Shown one piece after another: positions 20,635 to 35,022 of a stretch of 64,000 nt of DNA (positions are counted from its first letter, which is position 1; each line of letters begins with the position of its first letter). Under the pieces are notes generated by a model. The model was given only the letters and a program-made list of their open reading frames with translations, was not told where the DNA came from and ran no database searches. Both the position numbers and the translations under genes were made by a program. The stretch comes from Candidatus Wolfebacteria bacterium GW2011_GWB1_47_1 (GTDB lineage: Bacteria > Patescibacteriota > Minisyncoccia > UBA6257 > UBA9933), in assembly GCA_001029635.1 (NCBI GenBank), contig CP011209.1, positions 618,435 to 682,434 on the forward strand, in the 5' to 3' direction.

Positions 20635-21900
20635 TTACTTGTTCTTCGGTGGTACAAGCCGATAGATGACCCCGGCCTTATCGTCGGAGATATATGCCGT
20701 TCCATTTGGTGCGAATAGTATATCAACAGGGCGTCCGAGCGCATCGTAGTCGTCCGTGAGCCATCCGTTTATGAAATCATCCATGCCTTCATATGCGCCG
20801 TTTTCCGTCAGTTTTATACGCACAATCTTATAGCCGGTCGGCGTGCTGCGATTCCAGGATCCATGGTATGCGACTAGTAGATCATTGTGATATTCGGTAG
20901 GCCAGCTATCCGGGATGAATGCGAGTCCAAGTGGTGCGGAATGTGCCGGGATATCTATGTAGCTTGGCGTCTCGAATGGTTCCATGCACGGATTGCGGAA
21001 GTAGGTATTCTTATCGAACTCCGTATCATGAATGTTCTTCCCGTAGCAGATGGGCCACCCGTAATTCCCCCCTTTCTTGATGATATTTAGTTCGTCGGGT
21101 GGTGTGCCGTCCCCTAACATATCCCGGCCCATTTCTGTTGCCCAAATGTCCCTGGTATAGGGGTGGAAAGCCATAAAAACGCTATTACGGAGCCCTGTGG
21201 CGAACGTTTGCATCTTTCCTGTGTCTATAGCTATTTCGAGTATCTTTGCCCGATTTTGGTCCGTTTCCCGGCAGACATTACAGGACGAGCCGACCGACAC
21301 TAGGAGGTTATTTCCGTATGACAATAGGGTACGGGTGGAATGCCCGCCTCCGATCGGCAGCGGTGCGATTGCCCGCTTATCGGATGCAGTCAGCGTTTTT
21401 GGGTCGTAGGAAAATTCGCCTACCAAATCGTTTTCGGCGACATAGAGCTTGCAGTCATTCGACTGTACGCATTGTGTGACAATACCGTGAGGACTGTTCA
21501 ATCCGCCTATAACTGTTTTCGTCTCGTCACTCTTTCCGTCGTTATTTTTGTCGATGAGCGCGACCACCTTCCCTTGCGCGGGAATGCTTGCAAGTAGGAT
21601 TCCATTCGGGTCAAAAGTCAGTACGCGGGGATCGACGAGATCCTTCGCAAAGATGGAAAGTGAAAATCCCCGCGGCATGCGTAATGGACCCTGCTGCACT
21701 CGCCGTTCGGGTTCTGCTGATTCTTTTTGTTCTTCTATTGGCGCGGGAGAACTCTCCTCGATGAGTCGGACAATATCCTGTTCGGGCTCTAATACCGCCG
21801 GCCAGATGCCGCGCAGCTGCGTCCAATAAACAGCCGTCAATCCCGCTACGATTGCGATCGCAAGTATGGCCTCTATAATGATGCGTATTTTTTGTTTCAT
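20635..21900 (-). CDS. PQQ-dependent (soluble) sugar dehydrogenase family beta-propeller, membrane-anchored
   Basis: GGNYGWP motif and propeller-like repeats. Start at 21900 overlaps the sod stop codon (ATGA). Confidence 0.7.
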   Translation of the reverse strand: MKQKIRIIIEAILAIAIVAGLTAVYWTQLRGIWPAVLEPEQDIVRLIEESSPAPIEEQKESAEPERRVQQGPLRMPRGFSLSIFAKDLVDPRVLTFDPNGILLASIPAQGKVVALIDKNNDGKSDETKTVIGGLNSPHGIVTQCVQSNDCKLYVAENDLVGEFSYDPKTLTASDKRAIAPLPIGGGHSTRTLLSYGNNLLVSVGSSCNVCRETDQNRAKILEIAIDTGKMQTFATGLRNSVFMAFHPYTRDIWATEMGRDMLGDGTPPDELNIIKKGGNYGWPICYGKNIHDTEFDKNTYFRNPCMEPFETPSYIDIPAHSAPLGLAFIPDSWPTEYHNDLLVAYHGSWNRSTPTGYKIVRIKLTENGAYEGMDDFINGWLTDDYDALGRPVDILFAPNGTAYISDDKAGVIYRLVPPKNK

Positions 21901-22508
21901 CCGAGTGCGTTGTATCTTTCTTCTACCGCCTTCCAATCGAGCACGTTCCACCAGTTTTCGATGTATTCGGGGCGACGATTCTGGTAGTGCAGATAATACG
22001 CATGCTCCCAAATATCAATAACCATAAGTGGCGCATCTCCTGTCATTAGCGGATTGTCGTGGCCGGTGGTCGAAACGATCTTGAGCTTTTTATTTGCGTC
22101 GGCCGCTAACCACACCCAGCCACTCCCAAAAATATTTGCGGCCGCCTTTGAAAATTGCTCCTTGAACGCAATAATGCTCCCAAATGTTTCTACGAGCGCA
22201 TTGCCGAGTTCTTCAGGAATATATTCTTGTGTCGCCGGATTCATAATGTTCCAATACAGCGTGTGACTAAAGTGTCCACCCGCGTTGTTGCGCACGGTCG
22301 TGCGGATCTCTTCGGGAAGCTCGTTGAGTGACTTGATCAATTCCTCGACCGTCTTATCTTGCAGGTCGGGATATTTTTCAAGCGCGGCGTTGAGCTTGTC
22401 GACGTACGATTGATGATGTTTTGTGTGATGGATCTCGAGCGTCTTCGCGTCGATGAACGGCTCGAGCGCATTATATGCGTATGGAAGCGGAGGAAGTTCG
22501 TGTTTCAT
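21897..22508 (-). CDS. sodA: Fe/Mn superoxide dismutase
   Basis: LPPLPYAYNALEPFID...HHTKHH...DIWEHAYYL motifs. Metal specificity is not decidable by eye. Confidence 0.95.
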   Translation of the reverse strand: MKHELPPLPYAYNALEPFIDAKTLEIHHTKHHQSYVDKLNAALEKYPDLQDKTVEELIKSLNELPEEIRTTVRNNAGGHFSHTLYWNIMNPATQEYIPEELGNALVETFGSIIAFKEQFSKAAANIFGSGWVWLAADANKKLKIVSTTGHDNPLMTGDAPLMVIDIWEHAYYLHYQNRRPEYIENWWNVLDWKAVEERYNALG

Positions 22509-25895: not shown

Positions 25896-25930
25896 TCAAA
25901 AAAGCCCCCGATTGCTCGGGGGCTTGACTG
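25896..25930 (-). terminator. Intrinsic terminator, family 2 (gcccccgattgctcgggggc), T-run fused to TTGACA
   Basis: Identical to 26464-26497 except for a 1-nt indel. Confidence 0.75.
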
Positions 25931-25941
25931 ACTTTCTGGCT

Positions 25942-26376
25942 TTACGAGAGGGGTGGGATGTACAGCACTACCAAATCCTCTTCCGTTCCCGGATTTGGAA
26001 TGTTGATGATCTCGCCTTCGATTTCATGGTGTGCGAGTACTCTCTGATACTGTTTCGCAGCCTCCAATCGACCAGCGTATTCGCCGAAACCATTGGGATA
26101 CAGGAGTGTTCCGGCGTCGAGTGATTTGCCGGCAACTTTCTCTACGTGGGCGATGAATCCAGGCTCTTCCTCCTGAATGAGTACGGAGAAGCCGCGTTGT
26201 TGCGTCGGGCCGATGAACGGCGGAATGTCGTATCGTTGTAGGATATCAATGATCGGAGCACTCCGTTGGAGGCGTATCAACGCGCTGTTGTATGCTTTCT
26301 TGCGCGCTTTGTTCCCTACTTTTTCCCCGATCGCATCAGCTCGTTCGTATAGATCGCCTTGGTCTATTTTGTCCAT
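25942..26376 (-). CDS. Hypothetical protein (144 aa), orphan cassette
   Basis: GGAGGG SD. TTGACA-N17-TATTTT upstream. Ends ...IINIPNPGTEEDLVVLYIPPLS. Confidence 0.65.
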   Translation of the reverse strand: MDKIDQGDLYERADAIGEKVGNKARKKAYNSALIRLQRSAPIIDILQRYDIPPFIGPTQQRGFSVLIQEEEPGFIAHVEKVAGKSLDAGTLLYPNGFGEYAGRLEAAKQYQRVLAHHEIEGEIINIPNPGTEEDLVVLYIPPLS

Positions 26377-26463: not shown

Positions 26464-26497
26464 TCAAAAAACCCCCGATTGCTCGGGGGCTTGACTG
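26464..26497 (-). terminator. Intrinsic terminator, family 2 (duplicate of 25896-25930)
   Basis: Same hairpin and flanks, about 70 nt downstream of the stop of gene 26563..27186. Confidence 0.75.
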
Positions 26498-27286: not shown

Positions 27287-27400
27287 CATACCATCGATGA
27301 AATTGAATCAATAGCCCTCTTGTATAAATATACGTGTTTCTCACGTAAATGGTTCAGTCGGGAATCGATGTAAGTCGATCCAGTCGTCTCCATGATCCTA
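27287..27400 (-). pseudogene. queA: Decayed fragment of queA (internal about 37 codons)
   Basis: 27287-27342 matches 29777-29832 at 55/56, with weaker similarity to about 27400. Two in-frame TGA codons and a frameshift relative to the intact queA. Confidence 0.8.
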
Positions 27401-27489: not shown

Positions 27490-28314
27490 TTAATCATCGT
27501 CGTCGTCATCACCTTTTTGGGACGCTGACGGCGTTGGGGTTGTCGTTTGTTGGATTGCCTGCGAGGTTGTCTGCTGTCCGACCGCTCCAACGAGATAGTT
27601 TGCAAGCATTTGATGCGCATTCATCGAATGAGGCAGCCCCTCAAATGCAGCCGTTCCATCCCTTCCACAATAAGGGCGTATCGCGCCTACCCCGCCTGGA
27701 TGTCTCGGAATATAGCTTGTTACGTTGTAGACATTGCCATTGACGATCATCCAGCAATCGTCTGTTGTGCTGTGTTTCGCAATTTCCTGAATTGATAACG
27801 TTACTGATGGATTGGTCACGGTCGTGCTTAGTGTCGTCGGCTTTGCAGTCGATGTTGTTGGTTGTGCTGTTGCGGTCGTCGGCTTTTGCGTGGCCGCATT
27901 TTGTGCTACAGGTTTCTGTCCGAAGTCCCCTATGTAGTAGGCCTTGAGCATTTCGGTCGCGTTTTGCGAATGTGACTTTGGACTGGATGTCCGCCCTTTA
28001 GTCGCGTAGGCTTGCGTCGCATCCGTTCCACAGGTTGGGAGAATCGTGCTTGCATCTCCCGGATGTTTATCGAGATAGGTCGTTACGTCGTAGACTTTGC
28101 CGCTCACAAGGAGCCAACAACTTGCGGCGGTATTGTGCGTCAAAATCTCTCGCATAGATAACAGGGCTCCTGGTGCTACTACTGAGGCCGATTGCTGTTC
28201 CGGAGGAATCTCAACAGCCTGTTGTTTATTTTGATAAAACACTAATCCTGAGGTTAATAACGCAGTTACTAATGCCCAGAAGATAAGAAGTGATACCGCG
28301 GTCAATTTTTTCAT
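27490..28314 (-). CDS. Membrane-anchored protein with two cytochrome b5-like heme-binding domains, Thr-rich linkers and a poly-Asp tail
   Basis: Two copies of the ...CW(L/M)xVxGxVY(D/N)VT.Y...HPG(G/D) pattern, each with a downstream His (KSHS, LPHS). N-terminal signal anchor. Ends in KGDDDDDD. Confidence 0.75.
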   Translation of the reverse strand: MKKLTAVSLLIFWALVTALLTSGLVFYQNKQQAVEIPPEQQSASVVAPGALLSMREILTHNTAASCWLLVSGKVYDVTTYLDKHPGDASTILPTCGTDATQAYATKGRTSSPKSHSQNATEMLKAYYIGDFGQKPVAQNAATQKPTTATAQPTTSTAKPTTLSTTVTNPSVTLSIQEIAKHSTTDDCWMIVNGNVYNVTSYIPRHPGGVGAIRPYCGRDGTAAFEGLPHSMNAHQMLANYLVGAVGQQTTSQAIQQTTTPTPSASQKGDDDDDD

Positions 28315-28320
28315 GGATTT

Positions 28321-29625
28321 TTAGCGGAAGCCGAATTCTTCCGTATGTATATGTGATTTTTTTGTGCCCTTTTCAATTAATTGTCGTGTGAGGGAATGCA
28401 TCATAGGTTGCGGCCCACAAATCAGGATTTCCTTACTGTGAATATCCTCGTCCATCTGGAGTGTTGCCGCAGAAATGTGCCCTTGCGTACTTGAACAGTA
28501 TGGAACTATGCGTATACTTGGGTTGCCTTGTTCGATTGTAAGCAGTTCGTCGAGAAATACTGCCTCGGCTTTATTAGTTACGCAGTAATAGATTGTTATG
28601 TGATAGGACGAATCAGTTACCGATTTCGCCATACCAATGAATGGTGTTATGCCGATGCCGCCCGCTATCCAGATCTGGTTTTTTCCTGCAAAATGGTCGT
28701 ATAAAAATGTGCCAAAAGGACCCTCTATCTGTGCAACCGTATTCTTTGCTATCAATTTGAATTTGCCGGTATGATCTCCGAGTGTCTTTATTGCTATTGC
28801 TAATCGTGGTTCATCGGGAGTGGATATGAGCGAAAATGGATGTGACTCTTTGCCCACCTTCTCATCTTCAAAACTAATAAATACAAACTGGCCTGGTCTG
28901 TAGGCGATAGGCCTGTATGCTGGCACCATATAGATGGAAACGGTATTCTTGTCCAATGTACGCACCTCATCGACGATATATTCGATATGTGGAACAAAGA
29001 ATTTCGGGGCTAATGTGCGATAACAGATCGCCACCACGCCGATCGCGATAAATGTCGCCATCAGCCAATATAATCCTGCAGAGTTTTGTGTATCGCTATA
29101 GATGACCAAGGTGTGGATCGACGCAAGAACAAACGATACGGAAAGAAACTGGTGCGTAAGCCTCCATTTGTGATACGCGAAACTGATAAAGAAGGTCAAT
29201 ATAAGAAACAGTATCATCGAAAGCAATGCGGCAGTACCCCAGAGGATATCGGGGTCCGTTGAAAGTAAAAATAATGCCGCGTCCCGGGTGGATGCAACGA
29301 GAGCAATCTTCAGGGCAATCACTATCGGATGAAATAAGAGTAATGAGAATGTGATCGCGCCAAGTCGATGGTGAGCCACATATGCTTTATTAATGCCATC
29401 GAAGAATTGTTCCAGTATCGGATGGCGGGTGCCAAGTACTAACGTCAATGCAAATAATGCCATTCCTATCAACCCAAAGATTTGACCAATACTGGTTAGT
29501 GTATATGTGGGCGTTTCAAATCGCAGGGTAATCGGCTTCATGGTCGCCCAAAATAATAGTGGCAAAAGCGAAAGCGCCACAATAATCAACCACCCCGATG
29601 ACCTTTTTATACGCTGCAGCTTCAT
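28321..29625 (-). CDS. Ferric reductase/NADPH oxidase (FRD/NOX) family flavocytochrome: 6-TM bis-heme domain + FAD + NAD(P)H domains
   Basis: Hx13H (HHRLGAITFSLLLFH) and Hx12H (HQFLSVSFVLASIH) pairs in TM helices. HPFS (FAD), GGIGITPF (NAD(P)H) and a C-terminal CGP motif. Confidence 0.8.
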   Translation of the reverse strand: MKLQRIKRSSGWLIIVALSLLPLLFWATMKPITLRFETPTYTLTSIGQIFGLIGMALFALTLVLGTRHPILEQFFDGINKAYVAHHRLGAITFSLLLFHPIVIALKIALVASTRDAALFLLSTDPDILWGTAALLSMILFLILTFFISFAYHKWRLTHQFLSVSFVLASIHTLVIYSDTQNSAGLYWLMATFIAIGVVAICYRTLAPKFFVPHIEYIVDEVRTLDKNTVSIYMVPAYRPIAYRPGQFVFISFEDEKVGKESHPFSLISTPDEPRLAIAIKTLGDHTGKFKLIAKNTVAQIEGPFGTFLYDHFAGKNQIWIAGGIGITPFIGMAKSVTDSSYHITIYYCVTNKAEAVFLDELLTIEQGNPSIRIVPYCSSTQGHISAATLQMDEDIHSKEILICGPQPMMHSLTRQLIEKGTKKSHIHTEEFGFR

Positions 29626-29629
29626 ATAT

Positions 29630-30667
29630 TCAGTATATCAACATACCATCTCCAAATGAAAAGAATCGAAACTTTCGTTTAATTGCAATCTTGTAGAGCT
29701 TGAAGAGTGTATCCTTGCCGATCAGTGCCGCAACCAGCATCAAGAGGCTGGATTGTGGCACGTGAAAGTTGGTTACCATACCATCGATGAAATTGAATCG
29801 ATAGCCCTCTTGTATAAATATACGTGTTTCTCCTGTTAAACGTTTCAATTGGGAATCGATACAGGCTGACTCAAGTGTTCGGACTACTGTCGTACCTACT
29901 CCGATAATGGGGCGGCCTTCCTCCTTCGCCTTGTTGAGAAAGTTTGCCGTCTGCTTGTCTATTGAAAATGATTCGGTGTGTAGCGCGCCGGTATCGAGAT
30001 GCTCCTGCGTAAGTGGCGCAAATGTACCAATGTTTACATGGAGTGTTATAAAGCGAATGTCTACCCCCTGCTTCTGCAGCTTTTTTAATAGGCGATCAGT
30101 AAAATGGAGCGATGCGGTTGGTGCTGCGACTGAGCCGGCATGCTTAGCAAATACCGTCTGGTATTTTTTACGCAATTCGCGTTCGTTGAGTGGCGATTCT
30201 TTTATGTAAGGAGGGATCGGCGTGATGCCATGGCGATCAAGTATCGTATTGAGCTGCTGTAATGGAAACGATGGCTTAAGTAGATAATATTTTCCTTCTT
30301 GTTTTGCAACATTAAAAAATAAGCCACTTGTGATCCGGACATTGGTTCCTACTTCGAGCTTGCGATCTGACATAGCGCGGATTACATCTCCCTCTTGGGC
30401 AATATAAAGGATGCGCGCGGTTCCTCCTGTCGGTTTGGTAACCGTCAGGCGCGCGGGAAGAACTTTTGTTTGGTTGAATACCAATACCGCGCCCTTTGGC
30501 AGGTATTCCCCTATATGCGCAAAGGTCGTTTCAGTGATCGAATCGGCATTTCGATCGTATACCAAAAGTTTGGCGCTATCGCGGGGCGATGCGGGCTTTT
30601 GCGCGATCAGCGTTTCTGGAAATGCGTAATCGTATTCTTTGAGTATTTTTTCTAGTGGTTTTGACAT
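29630..30667 (-). CDS. queA: S-adenosylmethionine:tRNA ribosyltransferase-isomerase
   Basis: YDYAFPETLIAQKPASPRDSAKLLV..., GITPIPPYIKE and FFSFGDGMLI motifs. Start set at the ATG at 30667, just after the upstream stop. Confidence 0.9.
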   Translation of the reverse strand: MSKPLEKILKEYDYAFPETLIAQKPASPRDSAKLLVYDRNADSITETTFAHIGEYLPKGAVLVFNQTKVLPARLTVTKPTGGTARILYIAQEGDVIRAMSDRKLEVGTNVRITSGLFFNVAKQEGKYYLLKPSFPLQQLNTILDRHGITPIPPYIKESPLNERELRKKYQTVFAKHAGSVAAPTASLHFTDRLLKKLQKQGVDIRFITLHVNIGTFAPLTQEHLDTGALHTESFSIDKQTANFLNKAKEEGRPIIGVGTTVVRTLESACIDSQLKRLTGETRIFIQEGYRFNFIDGMVTNFHVPQSSLLMLVAALIGKDTLFKLYKIAIKRKFRFFSFGDGMLIY

Positions 30668-30671
30668 CGGC

Positions 30672-31160
30672 TTACGGACGGAGGTATTCTTTGTTGATCT
30701 CGATCCGCTCATCGATAATTGAATTCGGATCGTTCATCCAGATCTTTGAGGGAGCTATCTTATATAATCTATAGGTGTTCTCATTGAGCAATTTTTTCAA
30801 TCCCGTATTGAATGATTTTGTTGCACGTGCGTAGGGATATGTCCGTTTGAAGTAGGTTAATGATACCTCTGGTATTTCTAAAAGTGTTACCCTTTTTGCT
30901 GTTCCTTCGATCTGTAACCCTACCCCATCCCCTATCAATTGATGGGAATCGAATATCGCCACTGCAACGCTTTTGTTCTGCCCGATATTCACACAATGTT
31001 TTGAGCGGATATGGGAAACGAAATATAAATTCAGATCATTGTCGTATGCATATACAACCGGAGATACCCATGCCGTACCGTTTTTGCCGGCACTTCCAAT
31101 CGTCATGTATTGGTTGCTCTCCAGTATCTCTTTTGCCAATTTTTGCACATCGATTGCCAT
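30672..31160 (-). CDS. Pyridoxamine 5'-phosphate oxidase-like FMN-binding family protein
   Basis: Split-barrel family pattern (...YMTIGSAGKNGTAWVSPVVYAYDNDLNLYFVS...). Sits between tgt and queA. Confidence 0.6.
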   Translation of the reverse strand: MAIDVQKLAKEILESNQYMTIGSAGKNGTAWVSPVVYAYDNDLNLYFVSHIRSKHCVNIGQNKSVAVAIFDSHQLIGDGVGLQIEGTAKRVTLLEIPEVSLTYFKRTYPYARATKSFNTGLKKLLNENTYRLYKIAPSKIWMNDPNSIIDERIEINKEYLRP

Positions 31161-31164
31161 AGGA

Positions 31165-32301
31165 TTATATTTTTCCCTTTTTAATCTCTTCACGCACTTT
31201 CTTCACGAATCCGTGGAAGAAGTACATGTTGTGGAATGTGAGTAACTTAAGTGGCGTTATTTCGTTTGCCTTCAAGAGATGTGTGATATACCCCCTGCTG
31301 TAGTTTTGACATACAAAACACGAGCACTTTGGATCGAGGGGTTTTTTATCCAATAAAAATGTTCTTTTTTTCAAATCCAAGCGCCCTTTCGACGTAAATG
31401 CCATACCATGCCGCGCGTAATGCGTCGGAGCGATGCAGTCGAATGTATCGATGCCTGACTTCATGATCGGGATGATATCGTCGAGATGTCCGATGCCGAG
31501 TAGGTGGCGCGGTTTATTTTCTGGTAGTTTCTTGGTTACGATATCGAGCATGCCCGTCATCGAGCCTTTGTCTGCTCCGAATTCTCCTCCAATACCGAAG
31601 CCATCGAATGGCAGACTTCCGATAAATTCTGCACTTTCGGTCCGTAGATCCTTAAACTTTCCTCCTTGTACAATACCGTAGAGTGCCTGTTTCGACTTTT
31701 TTGTCTTGAGACAAACCTTTGCCCATTCGTTAGTATGCTCGAGCGACTTTTTTGTATATGCGCGGTCGGCCATCGGCGATGTACATTCGTCGAATGCAAA
31801 GATAATATCCGCGCCGATTTGTTCTTGTATCTTGATCGATTCTTTTGGCCCGAGAAACATTTCGCTACCATCATGATAGGAGCGGAACATAACCCCGTCC
31901 GGTGTTATGCTAAGTAGCTTGGGTTGTTGGCCAAGCTCGATGATATTTTCGCTTTCCTTTTTTAGAATCTTACCGGTCTGGAAGTCCCGACCGAACCCAA
32001 GGCTAAATACTTGAAATCCGCCCGAATCCGTCATAATCGGACGTTTCCAATTCATGAATTTGTGCAGACCCCCGTGCTTTTTAAGTACGGCTTCGCCTGG
32101 ACGGATGTGGAGATGATAGGTGTTAGCGATCAGTAATTGTGCGCCTGTCGCCTCGACCTCCTCGGATGTAAGCGTTTTAATAACCCCCTGGGTTGCTACC
32201 GAAACGTAGGCAGGTGTCTCCACTGTGCCATGCGTTGTTTTGAGCATGCCTATGCGCGCCTTGCTCTTCGCCGATCGTTTTTTGATTTTGAATTCGATCA
32301 T
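31165..32301 (-). CDS. tgt: Queuine tRNA-ribosyltransferase (tRNA-guanine transglycosylase)
   Basis: MTDSGGFQVFSLG, the GIGGEF region and the zinc site CSCFVCQNYSRGYITHL. Confidence 0.95.
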   Translation of the reverse strand: MIEFKIKKRSAKSKARIGMLKTTHGTVETPAYVSVATQGVIKTLTSEEVEATGAQLLIANTYHLHIRPGEAVLKKHGGLHKFMNWKRPIMTDSGGFQVFSLGFGRDFQTGKILKKESENIIELGQQPKLLSITPDGVMFRSYHDGSEMFLGPKESIKIQEQIGADIIFAFDECTSPMADRAYTKKSLEHTNEWAKVCLKTKKSKQALYGIVQGGKFKDLRTESAEFIGSLPFDGFGIGGEFGADKGSMTGMLDIVTKKLPENKPRHLLGIGHLDDIIPIMKSGIDTFDCIAPTHYARHGMAFTSKGRLDLKKRTFLLDKKPLDPKCSCFVCQNYSRGYITHLLKANEITPLKLLTFHNMYFFHGFVKKVREEIKKGKI

Positions 32302-32334: not shown

Positions 32335-35022
32335 TCAAGATGTTTTTTGCTTTTCATGAGTAAATATAAGGTATTTTGCCAATTCAATGAGTAGAATTTC
32401 AATGATCCCCGCAGTGATGATAACCGCCCAGGGCCGCCATCCGAGCGACACGGTTCCCATAATGGTCTGCATACCCGGGATATAGATGGCAAATCCGAGC
32501 AGTGCCAATCCTGCGACAATTGATCCATTGATCGCCTTATTTGAAAATACCCTTCTGTGAAATATGGATGTTTTAAGCGATCTGATGCACAGTACCAAAA
32601 GCAACGAATCAAAACAGGAGAGGGCAAAGACTGCGGTGCGTGCCAAACTTACATCTTCCGTTTTGCCAAGAAATGCTGCATACAGTCCTACCGCCATCGT
32701 TCCCGTCACGAAAAAGATGAATACTAGCCACTGCTTCAGGGCGGGGGTCAATATTGATTCATGCGGATCGCGGGGCGGTTCCTGCATGATTCCAAAACGG
32801 TCCCGCTCGGTCGTCAGCGCAATATTAGGGAGGCCGTCTTCTACCACGTTGATCCAGAGCAACTGCGTTGCCAGTAATGGAATCGGCAGTCCGAACGAAA
32901 TAGTCGCGATAAACAGAAAGAGTTCCGCAAAACTATCGGAGACAAGATAGACGAATATACGGCGTATATTATTAAACATGATTCTCCCCTCCTCAATCGT
33001 CTTCAATACTGTCTTAAGACTATTGTCGAGTAGAACGATATCGGACGCTTCGCGTGCTGCATCTGTTCCTGACCCGAGTGCTATACCCACATCGGAGGTT
33101 TGGAGTGCCGGGGCGTCGTTCACACCATCACCGATCATGGCAACTACTTCCCCGTTCTTTTGCAGTGCCTGCACGATGCGTAATTTGTGGTGTGGTGATA
33201 CCCGCGCGTAAAGACATACCGACTTTGCAACCTTTGCCAGTTCTTCGTCCGTCATTGCCTCGATATCTGCTCCTTCCATAATACATGACTCTGCTGACGG
33301 TATACCCACCTCATTGGCGATCGTGCGTGCCGTCAAGCGGTGGTCCCCCGTGATTAATACCGTTCGGATACCCGCTTTGCGTGCATCCTGTATGGTATGT
33401 CTTGCGTCCGAGCGCAACGGATCTTTAATGGCAATAAGTCCTACGAGCGTAAGGTCGTTTACCAGTTCCGATACAGCCTGATATGATGGGAGTCTTTGTA
33501 GTGTTTTGCGAGCGCATGCGATTACGCGGAGTCCTGTGGAAGTTGTCATTTCCATATGGCGGATGATGCGCTCGCGTTCGGGATCTCCAATGGGATGATG
33601 CGCGCCATTTTTATCAACCGATGTTGCCAGAGCGGTGAGCTGTTCGGCCGCACCGATGATCAATAGTTCAAACGTTCCTTTCGCTGTGCCAAATACCGTT
33701 GCCGCGTACTTTGTCTCCGATTCGAATGGTGCCATATCCTCTATCCAGCGACCTTGCCAGAGCTCATTGCGGTCGACTCCTGCCTGGATGGCTGCCAGAA
33801 GCAGTGCTTGTTCCGTCGGCGTTCCGCGAATAATCCAGTCTTTTAATTCGTCTTTTGGATTTTCTATATACGCTTCATTGACGAGCGCCGCGATTTGCAA
33901 TGATGTAATGTGCGAATCTGTCGGTTCTCCATTTGTTGCCAGATCTTTTATGTCGTTTTCTTCCGCGATTGGTAATTCATGCGTTGCGGTCAGGATGTGA
34001 CTTACCTGCATCGTTCCTTGAGTCAAGGTTCCTGTCTTGTCTGTGCAGATCACCGTTACGCTGCCAAGCGTTTCCGTCGCGGCCAATTTACGCACAAGAC
34101 CTCTCTCCTTGAGAATGCGGCGCATGCCCATAACCAACACAATCGTTATCGCAGGCAGCAACCCTTCCGGAATAGCCGACGCCGCGAGTGCAAGCGATGC
34201 GATGAAAATATCAGTAAACGGTTCACCGCGCGCAACCCCTAGTGCGATGATCAATACGACGATGCCACTGATGACCGCACCCAAGACGTTTGACATATGG
34301 CCGAGCTTTATCTGGAGCGGTGTGGGCCTCCGTTCTTCTTCGCGCAAGGACGATGCGATCTTCCCGAATTCGGTATCTCCCCCTGTAGCGACGACCAGAA
34401 GCGTCGCGCGTCCTGTTTCGACGGTTGTTCCCATGAATGCCATATTGCGCTGTTCGAAGACGGGTGCTTCCGCGGCGATCGTGCCCGTACTTTTTTCTAC
34501 CGGAGACCACTCGCCCGTGAGTGCCGATTCATTGACCGTCAATCGGGTTGCCGTGATAATGCGCGCATCAGCTGGAACCTTATTCCCTGCCTTTACCATA
34601 ATGACATCACCCGGTACCAATTCGGCGGCGTCTATCTCTCTTCGATTGCCCGCTCGTATGACGCTTGCTACCGTGCGTGCCATGCTGCGCAACGACTTAA
34701 GTGCTTCGTTCGCCTTGTCCTCCTGTAAAAAACTTACGATGCCATTCAATAACAAAACTGCAACCATAAAGCTCCCATCGATGTAGTGCTGTAACGCAAA
34801 TGAGATGATCGATGCACCAACCAGGATGTACATCAATGAATTATTAAATTGTTCAATAAATATACGTAGGCGTGAATATGACGCGCCTTCCGGCAGAACA
34901 TTCTTGCCGATCTTTGTCGCGAGACCATACGCCTGGTCATCTGAAAGGCCGCTGGGGCCACTTCCGGTAGCCTCATATACTTCTTCCGCAGTCAGTTCGT
35001 GCCAAAGGATTTTAATTGCCAT
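32335..35022 (-). CDS. P-type cation-transporting ATPase (P2-type, Ca2+/Mg2+-like)
   Basis: ICTDKTGTLT phosphorylation motif, TGDHRLTA and MIGDGVNDAPAL. 895 aa with about 10 TM segments. Confidence 0.9.
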   Translation of the reverse strand: MAIKILWHELTAEEVYEATGSGPSGLSDDQAYGLATKIGKNVLPEGASYSRLRIFIEQFNNSLMYILVGASIISFALQHYIDGSFMVAVLLLNGIVSFLQEDKANEALKSLRSMARTVASVIRAGNRREIDAAELVPGDVIMVKAGNKVPADARIITATRLTVNESALTGEWSPVEKSTGTIAAEAPVFEQRNMAFMGTTVETGRATLLVVATGGDTEFGKIASSLREEERRPTPLQIKLGHMSNVLGAVISGIVVLIIALGVARGEPFTDIFIASLALAASAIPEGLLPAITIVLVMGMRRILKERGLVRKLAATETLGSVTVICTDKTGTLTQGTMQVSHILTATHELPIAEENDIKDLATNGEPTDSHITSLQIAALVNEAYIENPKDELKDWIIRGTPTEQALLLAAIQAGVDRNELWQGRWIEDMAPFESETKYAATVFGTAKGTFELLIIGAAEQLTALATSVDKNGAHHPIGDPERERIIRHMEMTTSTGLRVIACARKTLQRLPSYQAVSELVNDLTLVGLIAIKDPLRSDARHTIQDARKAGIRTVLITGDHRLTARTIANEVGIPSAESCIMEGADIEAMTDEELAKVAKSVCLYARVSPHHKLRIVQALQKNGEVVAMIGDGVNDAPALQTSDVGIALGSGTDAAREASDIVLLDNSLKTVLKTIEEGRIMFNNIRRIFVYLVSDSFAELFLFIATISFGLPIPLLATQLLWINVVEDGLPNIALTTERDRFGIMQEPPRDPHESILTPALKQWLVFIFFVTGTMAVGLYAAFLGKTEDVSLARTAVFALSCFDSLLLVLCIRSLKTSIFHRRVFSNKAINGSIVAGLALLGFAIYIPGMQTIMGTVSLGWRPWAVIITAGIIEILLIELAKYLIFTHEKQKTS

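Follow-up and report, generated by a model that had tools for sequence, protein, structure and literature searches.

A SpNOX-type flavocytochrome and a tethered tandem cytochrome b5 protein form a conserved gene pair and a probable trans-membrane electron-export unit in Candidatus Wolfebacteria

Results

In a 64,000-nt stretch of the genome of Candidatus Wolfebacteria bacterium GW2011_GWB1_47_1 (contig CP011209.1, positions 618,435 to 682,434; hereafter the window), we analyzed two adjacent genes on the minus strand, one encoding a ferric reductase domain (FRD) flavocytochrome related to NADPH oxidases (NOX) (28321..29625) and the other a signal-anchored protein with two cytochrome b5 domains (27490..28314). 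We consider it probable that the two products constitute a single trans-membrane electron-export unit. The domain content, heme ligands, fold and topology of the two proteins and the conserved linkage of their genes were established computationally, and these results uphold the core of an earlier sequence-only reading. That reading had described a NOX/FRD signature with two histidine pairs and HPFS, GGIGITPF and CGP motifs, encoded 6 nt upstream of an anchored double-b5 gene whose product has a Thr-rich linker and six terminal Asp residues, and had made its case depend on b5 domains outside the cytoplasm, conserved heme histidines and linkage of the genes in other genomes; all three points were borne out by the analysis.

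The FRD protein

The 434-aa FRD protein contains Ferric_reduct (PF01794, residues 50-168), FAD_binding_8 (PF08022, 220-290) and NAD_binding_1 (PF00175, 320-411) domains, all of which exceed the curated Pfam cut-offs; NCBIfam models returned only sub-threshold matches to ferredoxin-NADP+ reductase (FNR)-type reductases for FRD and no match for the b5 protein. The heme-binding transmembrane (TM) domain occupies residues 1-205 (29011..29625), where hydropathy and the AlphaFold2 (AF2) model both give six hydrophobic helices. Two histidine pairs lie in these helices, H85-x13-H99 in TM3 and H158-x12-H171 in TM5, and alignment of H85, H99, H158 and H171 with the ligands H69, H83, H129 and H142 of SpNOX assigns H85 (29371-29373) and H158 (29152-29154) to the inner heme and H99 (29329-29331) and H171 (29113-29115) to the outer heme. 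The FNR-like dehydrogenase domain that follows (28324..28983; Pfam and alignment) carries HPFS in its FAD lobe (residues 262-265; 28831-28842), GGIGITPF (322-329; 28639-28662) and CGP (403-405; 28411-28419) in its NAD(P)H lobe, and a C-terminal EEF with its aromatic residue. The four heme histidines, HPF, GGxGxxPF, CGP and the C-terminal EEF are invariant across 23 FRD homologues.

SpNOX is also the best match of known structure, aligning over the full length at E ~1e-33 (entries 8qt6 and 8qq7; 5.6e-34 for 8qt6), and a Foldseek search with the AF2 model built from the 23-homologue alignment (pLDDT 88.3) returned 8qt6 as the top PDB match (E 5e-25; TMq 0.82, TMt 0.88). The sequence filters applied to bacterial NOX by Hajjar et al. 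2017 (PMC5676040), which comprise the FAD motif H[PSA]F[TS][LIMV], two H-x12-14-H motifs in separate TM helices and 3-7 predicted helices, all find their counterpart in FRD, with HPFSL at 262-266, GIGITP within GGIGITPF, and both bis-His motifs. Sequence and model agree in predicting that FRD is a complete SpNOX-type flavocytochrome. The protein is 100% identical to one named Candidatus Wolfebacteria bacterium GW2011_GWE1_48_7, which bears out the placement of the genome in the candidate phyla radiation (CPR) by the sequence-only reading.

The extracellular C-loop that follows the outer-heme ligand H99 (HPIVIALKIALVASTRDAALFLLSTDPDILWGT; 29233..29331, from the homologue alignment) is conserved (S..R.AALFLLP), is longer than the C-loop of SpNOX, against which it aligns with gaps, and forms a short helix at residues 112-119 in the model; it is a candidate docking surface. 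The extra TM3 histidine of NOX2 (His-119, four residues after the outer ligand) is replaced in FRD by Ile103, and none of the aligned homologues, which read HP[LI]xL[AV], has a histidine at this position. The His-119 equivalent separates NOX enzymes that generate reactive oxygen species (ROS) from presumptive metalloreductases (Zhang et al. 2013, PMC3591440). TM4 of FRD begins with WGTAALL (G130-T131), and its relation to the NOX2 Thr-178/Gly-179 dipeptide lies in a region that gave no reliable residue-level alignment.

The tandem cytochrome b5 protein

The b5 gene encodes a 274-aa protein that PF00173 matches twice (150 bits, cut-off 23.7; E 1.7e-44). Its N-terminal anchor (MKKLTAVSLLIFWALVTALLTSGLVFYQNK; 28225..28314), recognized by conservation, charge bias and an AF2 helix (residues 2-30, pLDDT >90), contains the single hydrophobic helix of the protein (7-25 by hydropathy). 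Domain 1 (27922..28164) has the ligands H84 (28063-28065) and H115 (27970-27972) and the Cys pair C66/C95, and is joined by a flexible Thr/Ala/Pro/Gln-rich linker (residues 132-168; 27811..27921) to domain 2 (27577..27810), with the ligands H205 (27700-27702) and H229 (27628-27630) and the Cys pair C187/C216. Twelve of the 37 linker residues are Thr, pLDDT falls below 50 at 140-165, and linker length and sequence vary across the family. A conserved C-terminal extension (Q.IQQT...P...G; 27493..27576) closes the protein, which ends in GDDDDDD (six Asp at 27493-27510).

The ligand motifs read HPGD...HS (H84/H115) and HPGG...HS (H205/H229), with the second histidine ~24-31 residues after the first. 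None of these four ligands varies among 25 homologues, and the same holds for two cysteines per domain, at positions matching both cysteines of the bacterial cytochrome b558 of E. vacuolata (1cxy), which are said to form a disulfide. The same structure is the best PDB match of the protein (to domain 2, E 5e-18, TM-score 0.84), and the AF2 b5 domains (pLDDT ~93) superpose on solved b5 structures (rat, bovine and E. vacuolata) with TMt values of 0.75-0.85. From these features the product is predicted to be a tethered extracytoplasmic tandem cytochrome with classical His/His b5 domains. The copy of the same b5 gene in another assembly (ENA; P0001) has a frameshifted C-terminus (...QQTTSRQSNKRQPQRRQRPKK...) and has lost the acidic tail, as the result of either an assembly error or natural variation.

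Conservation of the gene pair

FRD lies upstream of the b5 gene and shares its strand and reading frame, with 6 nt between its stop codon and the b5 ATG. Scanning a single genome for each GTDB species gave 354 loci with a relative of the b5 protein; adjacency was counted in the best 80 of the 354 by tblastn with the window proteins, a procedure that undercounts divergent b5-like partners (e.g., the degenerate b5-like ORFs of loci L089 and L093 and the MAPR-like ORF of L116). FRD was found directly upstream on the same strand in 42 of the 80 loci, with gaps of 3-71 nt and one of 327 nt, and divergent at 590-842 nt in nine; a further 25 loci had no FRD within 6 kb and four were truncated. The distance between FRD and the b5 gene is thus less than 1 kb in 51 of the 76 evaluable species-level loci. 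Three b5 homologues on long contigs each have FRD immediately upstream in otherwise unrelated surroundings, and all-against-all clustering of 611 neighboring open reading frames (ORFs) from the 51 loci and the window left FRD and b5 as the only universal members. Since the adjacency recurs in dozens of unrelated contexts, chance is excluded as the cause of the pairing, and the FRD-b5 pair is a conserved unit.

The pairing is found in Proteobacteria as well as in CPR. When the broad FRD-FNR family was sampled from metagenomes, 16 of the 65 loci that could be evaluated had a b5 ORF directly downstream, and several of these ORFs are single-domain anchored b5 genes on high-GC contigs. Named members of the single-b5 family occur in Ca. 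Accumulibacter, Nitrosomonadales, Binatia and the cultured Methylococcus sp. EFPC2; in Methylococcus sp. EFPC2 and Ca. Accumulibacter, FRD is followed by an anchored b5 gene with overlapping stop and start codons.

Topology, membrane anchor and acidic tail

The net charge flanking the b5 anchor is +2.9 on the N-terminal and +0.4 on the C-terminal side, a bias present in 25 of 25 b5 family members, and the predicted loops of FRD contain ~8.5 Lys and Arg residues inside and ~3.5 outside, which fits NOX topology. Some relatives of the b5 protein carry surface domains of the fn3, Big_7 or PepSY-like type as fusions, and others are encoded in an operon behind a TM-anchored cyclophilin. Because the charge bias, the invariant Cys pairs and this surface-domain and cyclophilin context coincide, a predicted topology with the b5 domains extracellular and the FRD dehydrogenase domain cytoplasmic is supported. 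The b5 anchor is probably uncleaved and oriented N-in/C-out.

The anchor consensus (MKKLT.ISLFIFW..VTAIL.AGLVFYQN) is conserved far beyond the needs of a signal peptide. The FIFW-type motif is present in 28 of 42 b5 proteins encoded next to FRD, in one of nine with a divergent FRD and in none of 25 without FRD, and FW occupies the same anchor position in the proteobacterial FRD-coupled b5 proteins. Tandem b5 proteins without FRD have other anchors and other membrane partners (DoxX or a small two-helix His protein). This covariation of anchor type with membrane partner points to an intramembrane complex and suggests that the anchor contacts FRD within the membrane.

At the opposite end of the protein, an acidic tail is present in 36 of 39 complete FRD-adjacent b5 homologues, in one of the 67 ORFs of the window and in none of 937 non-b5 ORFs across the 80 loci. 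It also occurs in the b5 class with a PepSY_TM-type partner and is missing from the proteobacterial single-b5 proteins examined. A role as a general sorting signal was ruled out, as no other ORF carries the tail.

Proposed mechanism and alternative explanations

In the mechanism that we propose, the cytoplasmic FNR-like domain would take hydride from NAD(P)H onto FAD, and single electrons would pass from FAD to the inner heme (H85/H158) and on to the outer heme (H99/H171) near the outer membrane face, as expected from membership in the SpNOX family. The outer heme would then reduce the tandem b5 partner rather than O2 at a buried pocket. The N-in/C-out anchor helix would hold the b5 protein beside FRD, so placed that domain 1, on a leash of ~20 residues, could dock on the exposed outer heme and domain 2, on its Thr-rich linker of ~37 residues, could serve as a mobile relay through the cell envelope. 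In the last step an external oxidant would be reduced; as a speculation, the poly-Asp tail would capture Fe(III) or some other oxidant that is cationic or soluble. In a cell without a respiratory chain, this would supply ferrous iron and/or regenerate NAD(P)+. The potentials of b5-type hemes (~0 mV) and NOX-type membrane hemes (~-250 mV) would make such a transfer downhill, and inward flow from b5 to NAD+ was ruled out on general thermodynamic grounds.

We infer direct electron transfer from FRD to b5 from operon conservation, from the topology, from an anchor specific to its partner and from the biochemistry of SpNOX. In SpNOX the outer heme is exposed to solvent, no canonical O2 site is present and O2-site mutants stay active; the enzyme reduces cytochrome c directly at 124.7/min, O2 at 48/min and iron at 3.6/min, and its authors proposed a protein acceptor (2024 SpNOX structure study). 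The eLife SpNOX study describes the physiological function as unknown and non-O2 acceptors as possible, and names MsrQ-MsrP as the sole understood prokaryotic case.

Several observations weigh against a dedicated unit of this kind. About one third of the related b5 tandems lack a nearby FRD and use other membrane partners, and no downstream b5 is detectable in about three quarters of the broad FRD-FNR family, so that each protein can evidently work in other combinations. Clustering of the 611 neighboring ORFs revealed no third conserved component or acceptor gene. The acidic tail, found with non-FRD partners and missing from proteobacterial single-b5 proteins, is not needed for coupling and would belong instead to the output side of the b5 arm. 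Finally, to our knowledge CPR bacteria are generally held to lack heme synthesis, and the four hemes of each unit must therefore be scavenged.

Electron export and ROS generation had been offered side by side by the sequence-only reading. Its export half is supported, and its ROS half is weakened by the missing O2-site histidine of NOX. As a true NADPH oxidase dedicated to making superoxide or other ROS, the pair would reduce O2 at the FRD outer heme or through autoxidizing b5, for signaling or for attack on a host or competitor, with superoxide dismutase (SOD) protecting the producer. The complete NOX core, the agreement with the bacterial-NOX filters, the consumption of O2 by SpNOX in vitro and the Fe/Mn SOD gene 5 kb away fit such a role, but FRD and its aligned homologues lack the histidine at the NOX2 His-119 position, and SpNOX itself has no canonical O2 site and keeps its activity when O2-site residues are mutated. 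A conserved His/His b5 is moreover unnecessary for O2 reduction, low-spin hemes are generally known to react poorly with O2, and the SOD lacks an export signal and is unlinked at other loci; we therefore regard a dedicated ROS generator as improbable. Assimilatory ferric reduction is easier to reconcile with the electron-export unit, of whose last step it is a specific version without contradiction. The b5 arm, with Fe(III) bound to the poly-Asp tail, would reduce external ferric iron or chelates for Fe(II) uptake, as do yeast Fre and plant FRO, except that reduction would take place on a tethered b5. Membership in the FRD/FRE superfamily, the missing His-119 signature (as in presumptive metalloreductases), a terminal carboxylate cluster that is family-specific and found in no other neighboring protein, and P-type cation ATPases within 6 kb of the pair in nine of 52 loci are consistent with this role. 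Nevertheless, SpNOX reduces iron very poorly, an activity considered non-physiological, the pair has no conserved Fe(II) transporter beside it, the neighboring ATPases are a mixture of P1B and P2 types, and the proteobacterial partners have no acidic tail. An assimilatory ferric reductase is thus a tentative assignment, possible but on balance not the outcome that we expect.

Two further alternatives place the b5 protein in the service of something other than a small oxidant. It could feed an extracytoplasmic repair or biosynthetic enzyme (e.g., a methionine sulfoxide reductase or a desaturase-like enzyme) in the manner of MsrPQ, since a physiological role is known for no prokaryotic FRD protein other than MsrQ, whose electrons go to a docked periplasmic enzyme, eukaryotic b5 is generally known to serve enzymes, and a conserved small exported protein precedes the proteobacterial pairs. 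We consider this very unlikely, because no client enzyme is conserved beside the CPR pairs and FRD departs from the YedZ/MsrQ signature, in which there is no dehydrogenase domain and the first His is replaced by Arg. We give still less credence to a scheme in which b5 is a heme-capture or heme-storage receptor of a heme-auxotrophic epibiont, with FRD supplying only reducing power or being a functionally unrelated neighbor. CPR bacteria are commonly thought to need heme without making it, and the b5 domains are predicted to be surface-exposed heme binders on long tethers; yet the invariant bis-His ligation and classical b5 fold are typical of electron carriers rather than hemophores, the pair also occurs in heme-prototrophic Proteobacteria, and no heme transporter is conserved nearby. 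A trans-membrane electron-export unit thus remains the reading that we favor.

Other partners and genomic neighborhood

Loci with related b5 proteins include several other architectures. In one (L014, L031, L032, L044, L057, L063 and L081), FRD is divergent from a membrane-anchored cyclophilin-type peptidyl-prolyl isomerase gene, which is followed by a gene for a b5 protein with three to four domains, an anchor of the form MKIKI.VG... and a C-terminal domain ending in ...IT.D..C instead of the acidic tail; cyclophilin is confined to this divergent subclass and was rejected as a general component. Another class (L029, L061 and L069-L072) has tandem b5 fused or adjacent to DoxX and no neighboring FRD, and several of its loci are labeled as DPANN archaea. 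In a third (L037, L058, L060, L064, L066 and L067), tandem b5 is followed by a 90-107-aa two-helix, His-containing protein with a PepSY_TM match just below threshold. The DoxX and small two-helix partners suggest interchangeable membrane input modules.

Some loci with FRD differ in what accompanies it. In metagenome contig L116, a TM-anchored MAPR-like b5 domain (LAKYNG...IYLVLDGYVYDVS; 497-862) lies directly upstream of FRD and resembles the cytb5MY arrangement of a 2021 preprint discussed below. CPR-type FRD genes in L089 (5379-6314) and L093 (1970-2968) are followed by genes for anchored Ser/Thr-rich proteins, of which that of L089 has a C-terminal b5-like domain in which the HPG ligand motif is lost; such proteins may be partners that have degenerated or been put to another use. 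A signal-peptide protein of ~103 aa precedes the proteobacterial pair in Methylococcus sp. EFPC2 (L167:4415-4729) and Ca. Accumulibacter (L168:4414-4722). It contains the conserved stretch GPWRASE..TRGWQLMTP.ERIDHQ.RIRSF and two conserved cysteines, has no Pfam match, and has no counterpart seen in CPR; in Proteobacteria it might act as a third component or as a client.

The P-type ATPases near the pair are those of the window (32335..35022) and of L007, L010, L012, L014, L017, L021, L028 and L030, with heavy-metal P1B (HMA/CPC) types among them, and their recurrence seems to be above chance. ABC ATPases, present in ten loci, show no pattern and were rejected as a component.

In the window, tgt, PNPOx, queA, FRD and b5 are co-directional and tightly packed. 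The intact queA (29630..30712, minus strand; PF02547, E 2.4e-110) lies 4 nt upstream of the FRD start, and scans of the queA-FRD interval for promoters and terminators stayed at background level, with no convincing candidate. Directly downstream of the b5 gene is a degenerate fragment of the queA 3' coding region (27287..27369, minus strand) with an in-frame stop and ~90% identity to its source at 29777-29860, so that the queA-derived repeats previously noted on either side of the pair are indeed present. The gene order is tgt-PNPOx-queA-FRD-b5-(queA fragment)-orf207-orf144 in the window and tgt-queA-orf144-FRD-b5 in a related Wolfebacteria genome (L007). The 83-nt fragment with its stop indicates that a local rearrangement moved the FRD-b5 cassette beside queA, and such movement fits the patchy, transfer-prone distribution of the pair. 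The 144-aa ORF (25942..26376), which occupies a different position in L007, is bracketed in the window by a duplicated GC-rich hairpin of 32 nt, AAAAAGCCCCCGATTGCTCGGGGGCTTGACTG, whose two copies (25899-25930 and 26466-26497) are 97% identical. In four contexts (window 29630-32301, L007 1909-4073, L001 1-271 and L074 1289-2404) the queuosine genes tgt and/or queA are found within a few kb upstream of the pair, a proximity that may be inherited Parcubacteria synteny and not a functional link.

The Fe/Mn SOD gene that had been remarked on ~5 kb away is located at 21897..22508 on the minus strand, 4,982 nt from the b5 stop. The position stands, and a functional link was ruled out, since the protein has no export signal peptide, unrelated genes lie between, and the proximity does not recur at other loci.

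Discussion

Two 2024 structural studies of SpNOX describe an exposed outer heme, no canonical O2 site and a physiological acceptor that is unknown but may be a protein. The FRD-b5 operon order, kept from CPR bacteria to cultured Proteobacteria, provides a concrete candidate acceptor for bacterial NOX-like enzymes and makes the acceptor question testable by simple spectroscopy and by genetics in Methylococcus. For CPR bacteria, which are regarded as living by fermentation alone, the pair would be a rare example of a membrane redox device, and it bears on how they acquire iron, tolerate oxygen, keep their redox balance and depend on heme from a host.

A wider scenario is conceivable, although we think it doubtful in its entirety. 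CPR bacteria and DPANN archaea might use tethered tandem b5 arms, with their non-covalent b hemes, as a modular extracellular electron conduit, in which FRD-FNR, DoxX and small PepSY_TM-like two-helix proteins would be input modules that, each with its own anchor type, feed a common acid-tailed b5 relay, and the relay would discharge cytoplasmic reducing power onto minerals, dissolved oxidants or a host surface. If true, extracellular electron transfer would have a further, so far unrecognized form, by which ultra-small symbionts that lack quinone respiratory chains and cytochrome c maturation could balance their redox state, and the proteobacterial FRD-b5 couple would disclose the physiological acceptor so long sought for SpNOX-type enzymes.

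Co-localization of the two gene families in CPR is already known. A 2021 preprint on the origins of MAPR proteins (bioRxiv 10.1101/2021.11.17.468889) reported PF01794 in 1427 of 7645 CPR genomes, 185 of which have a cytb5 gene within 10 kb, and proposed that the pFre/cytb5 products, all of which have TM helices, form a membrane complex whose function is unknown and specific to CPR. Within CPR the module is nothing out of the ordinary: this prevalence, together with our 354 GTDB-species loci with related b5 proteins, overturns the view of the sequence-only reading that it is unexpected in such a genome. The window shares with the preprint's operon the co-localization of PF01794 and a cytb5 gene within 10 kb, but the preprint centers on a Tyr-ligated, MAPR-like cytb5MY and a two-component system, whereas the window has tandem His/His b5 domains with an acidic tail. 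A family hidden Markov model found only one b5-type ORF in the window, and a MAPR-like query gave no match there, which is a weak test; no response regulator or histidine kinase was found among the neighboring ORFs scanned with Pfam, which represent part of those at 19.5-36 kb. The preprint also states that there is no co-localization outside CPR, in contrast to its presence here in Methylococcus and Accumulibacter, and does not tie pFre to SpNOX or to outward electron transfer. Our literature search returned no paper that joins ferric reductase, cytochrome b5 and Patescibacteria, and the top-ranked CPR papers do not mention cytochrome b5. In the literature searched, we found no description of pFre as a full SpNOX-type enzyme; of a tandem His/His, anchored and acid-tailed b5 as a dedicated outside acceptor; of a partner-specific anchor; or of this couple's occurrence in Proteobacteria, a finding at odds with the CPR-only statement of the preprint.

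Among characterized enzymes, SpNOX (8qt6, 8qq7) and the bacterial NOX set are like FRD in being single-chain, six-TM di-heme proteins with an FNR-like dehydrogenase domain, the same ligands and motifs and no regulatory domain, and the canonical NOX O2 pocket is missing in both SpNOX and FRD. The two proteins are ~25% identical and differ in the C-loop, which is longer and conserved in FRD, and in genetic context, since FRD has a dedicated b5 gene whereas the SpNOX papers describe no encoded partner and an unknown physiological acceptor. The E. vacuolata b558 (1cxy) resembles b5 domain 2 in its two Cys positions and HPG...HS ligands, and the proteobacterial FRD-coupled b5 proteins resemble b558; it is, however, a small soluble single domain, unlike the anchored, tandem, linker-rich and acid-tailed b5 protein of the window.

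Other parallels come largely from general knowledge. In the couple of NADH-cytochrome b5 reductase and b5, an FNR-family flavoprotein likewise reduces a b5-fold heme, and in flavocytochrome b2 and cellobiose dehydrogenase a mobile heme-b domain on a flexible linker likewise shuttles electrons to a distant acceptor; PDB matches to proteins of these groups were 7rom, 2eix and 1fcb. In the window pair, by contrast, the flavin and the b5 would lie on opposite sides of the membrane, bridged by two TM hemes, and the b5 is a separate, tandem protein. Multi-heme c-type conduits and Listeria Ndh2/PplA are alike in proposed role, carrying NADH electrons across a monoderm envelope, but only as an analogy, since the proteins are unrelated and the pair uses non-covalent b hemes, with no quinone pool, cytochrome c maturation or flavinylation genes. 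A parallel in kind is MsrQ-MsrP of E. coli, in which an FRD-family heme protein with an exposed outer heme likewise delivers electrons to a dedicated extracytoplasmic redox protein encoded adjacent to it. MsrQ, which has no dehydrogenase domain, takes electrons from quinol or Fre and has a molybdoenzyme rather than a b5 as its partner; FRD, for its part, retains all four histidines in place of the YedZ signature (Arg for the first His), and no MsrP-like gene is conserved among its neighbors. By this analogy, the FRD-b5 pair would belong with MsrQ-MsrP to the systems in which an FRD-family protein transfers electrons across the membrane to a dedicated extracytoplasmic partner.

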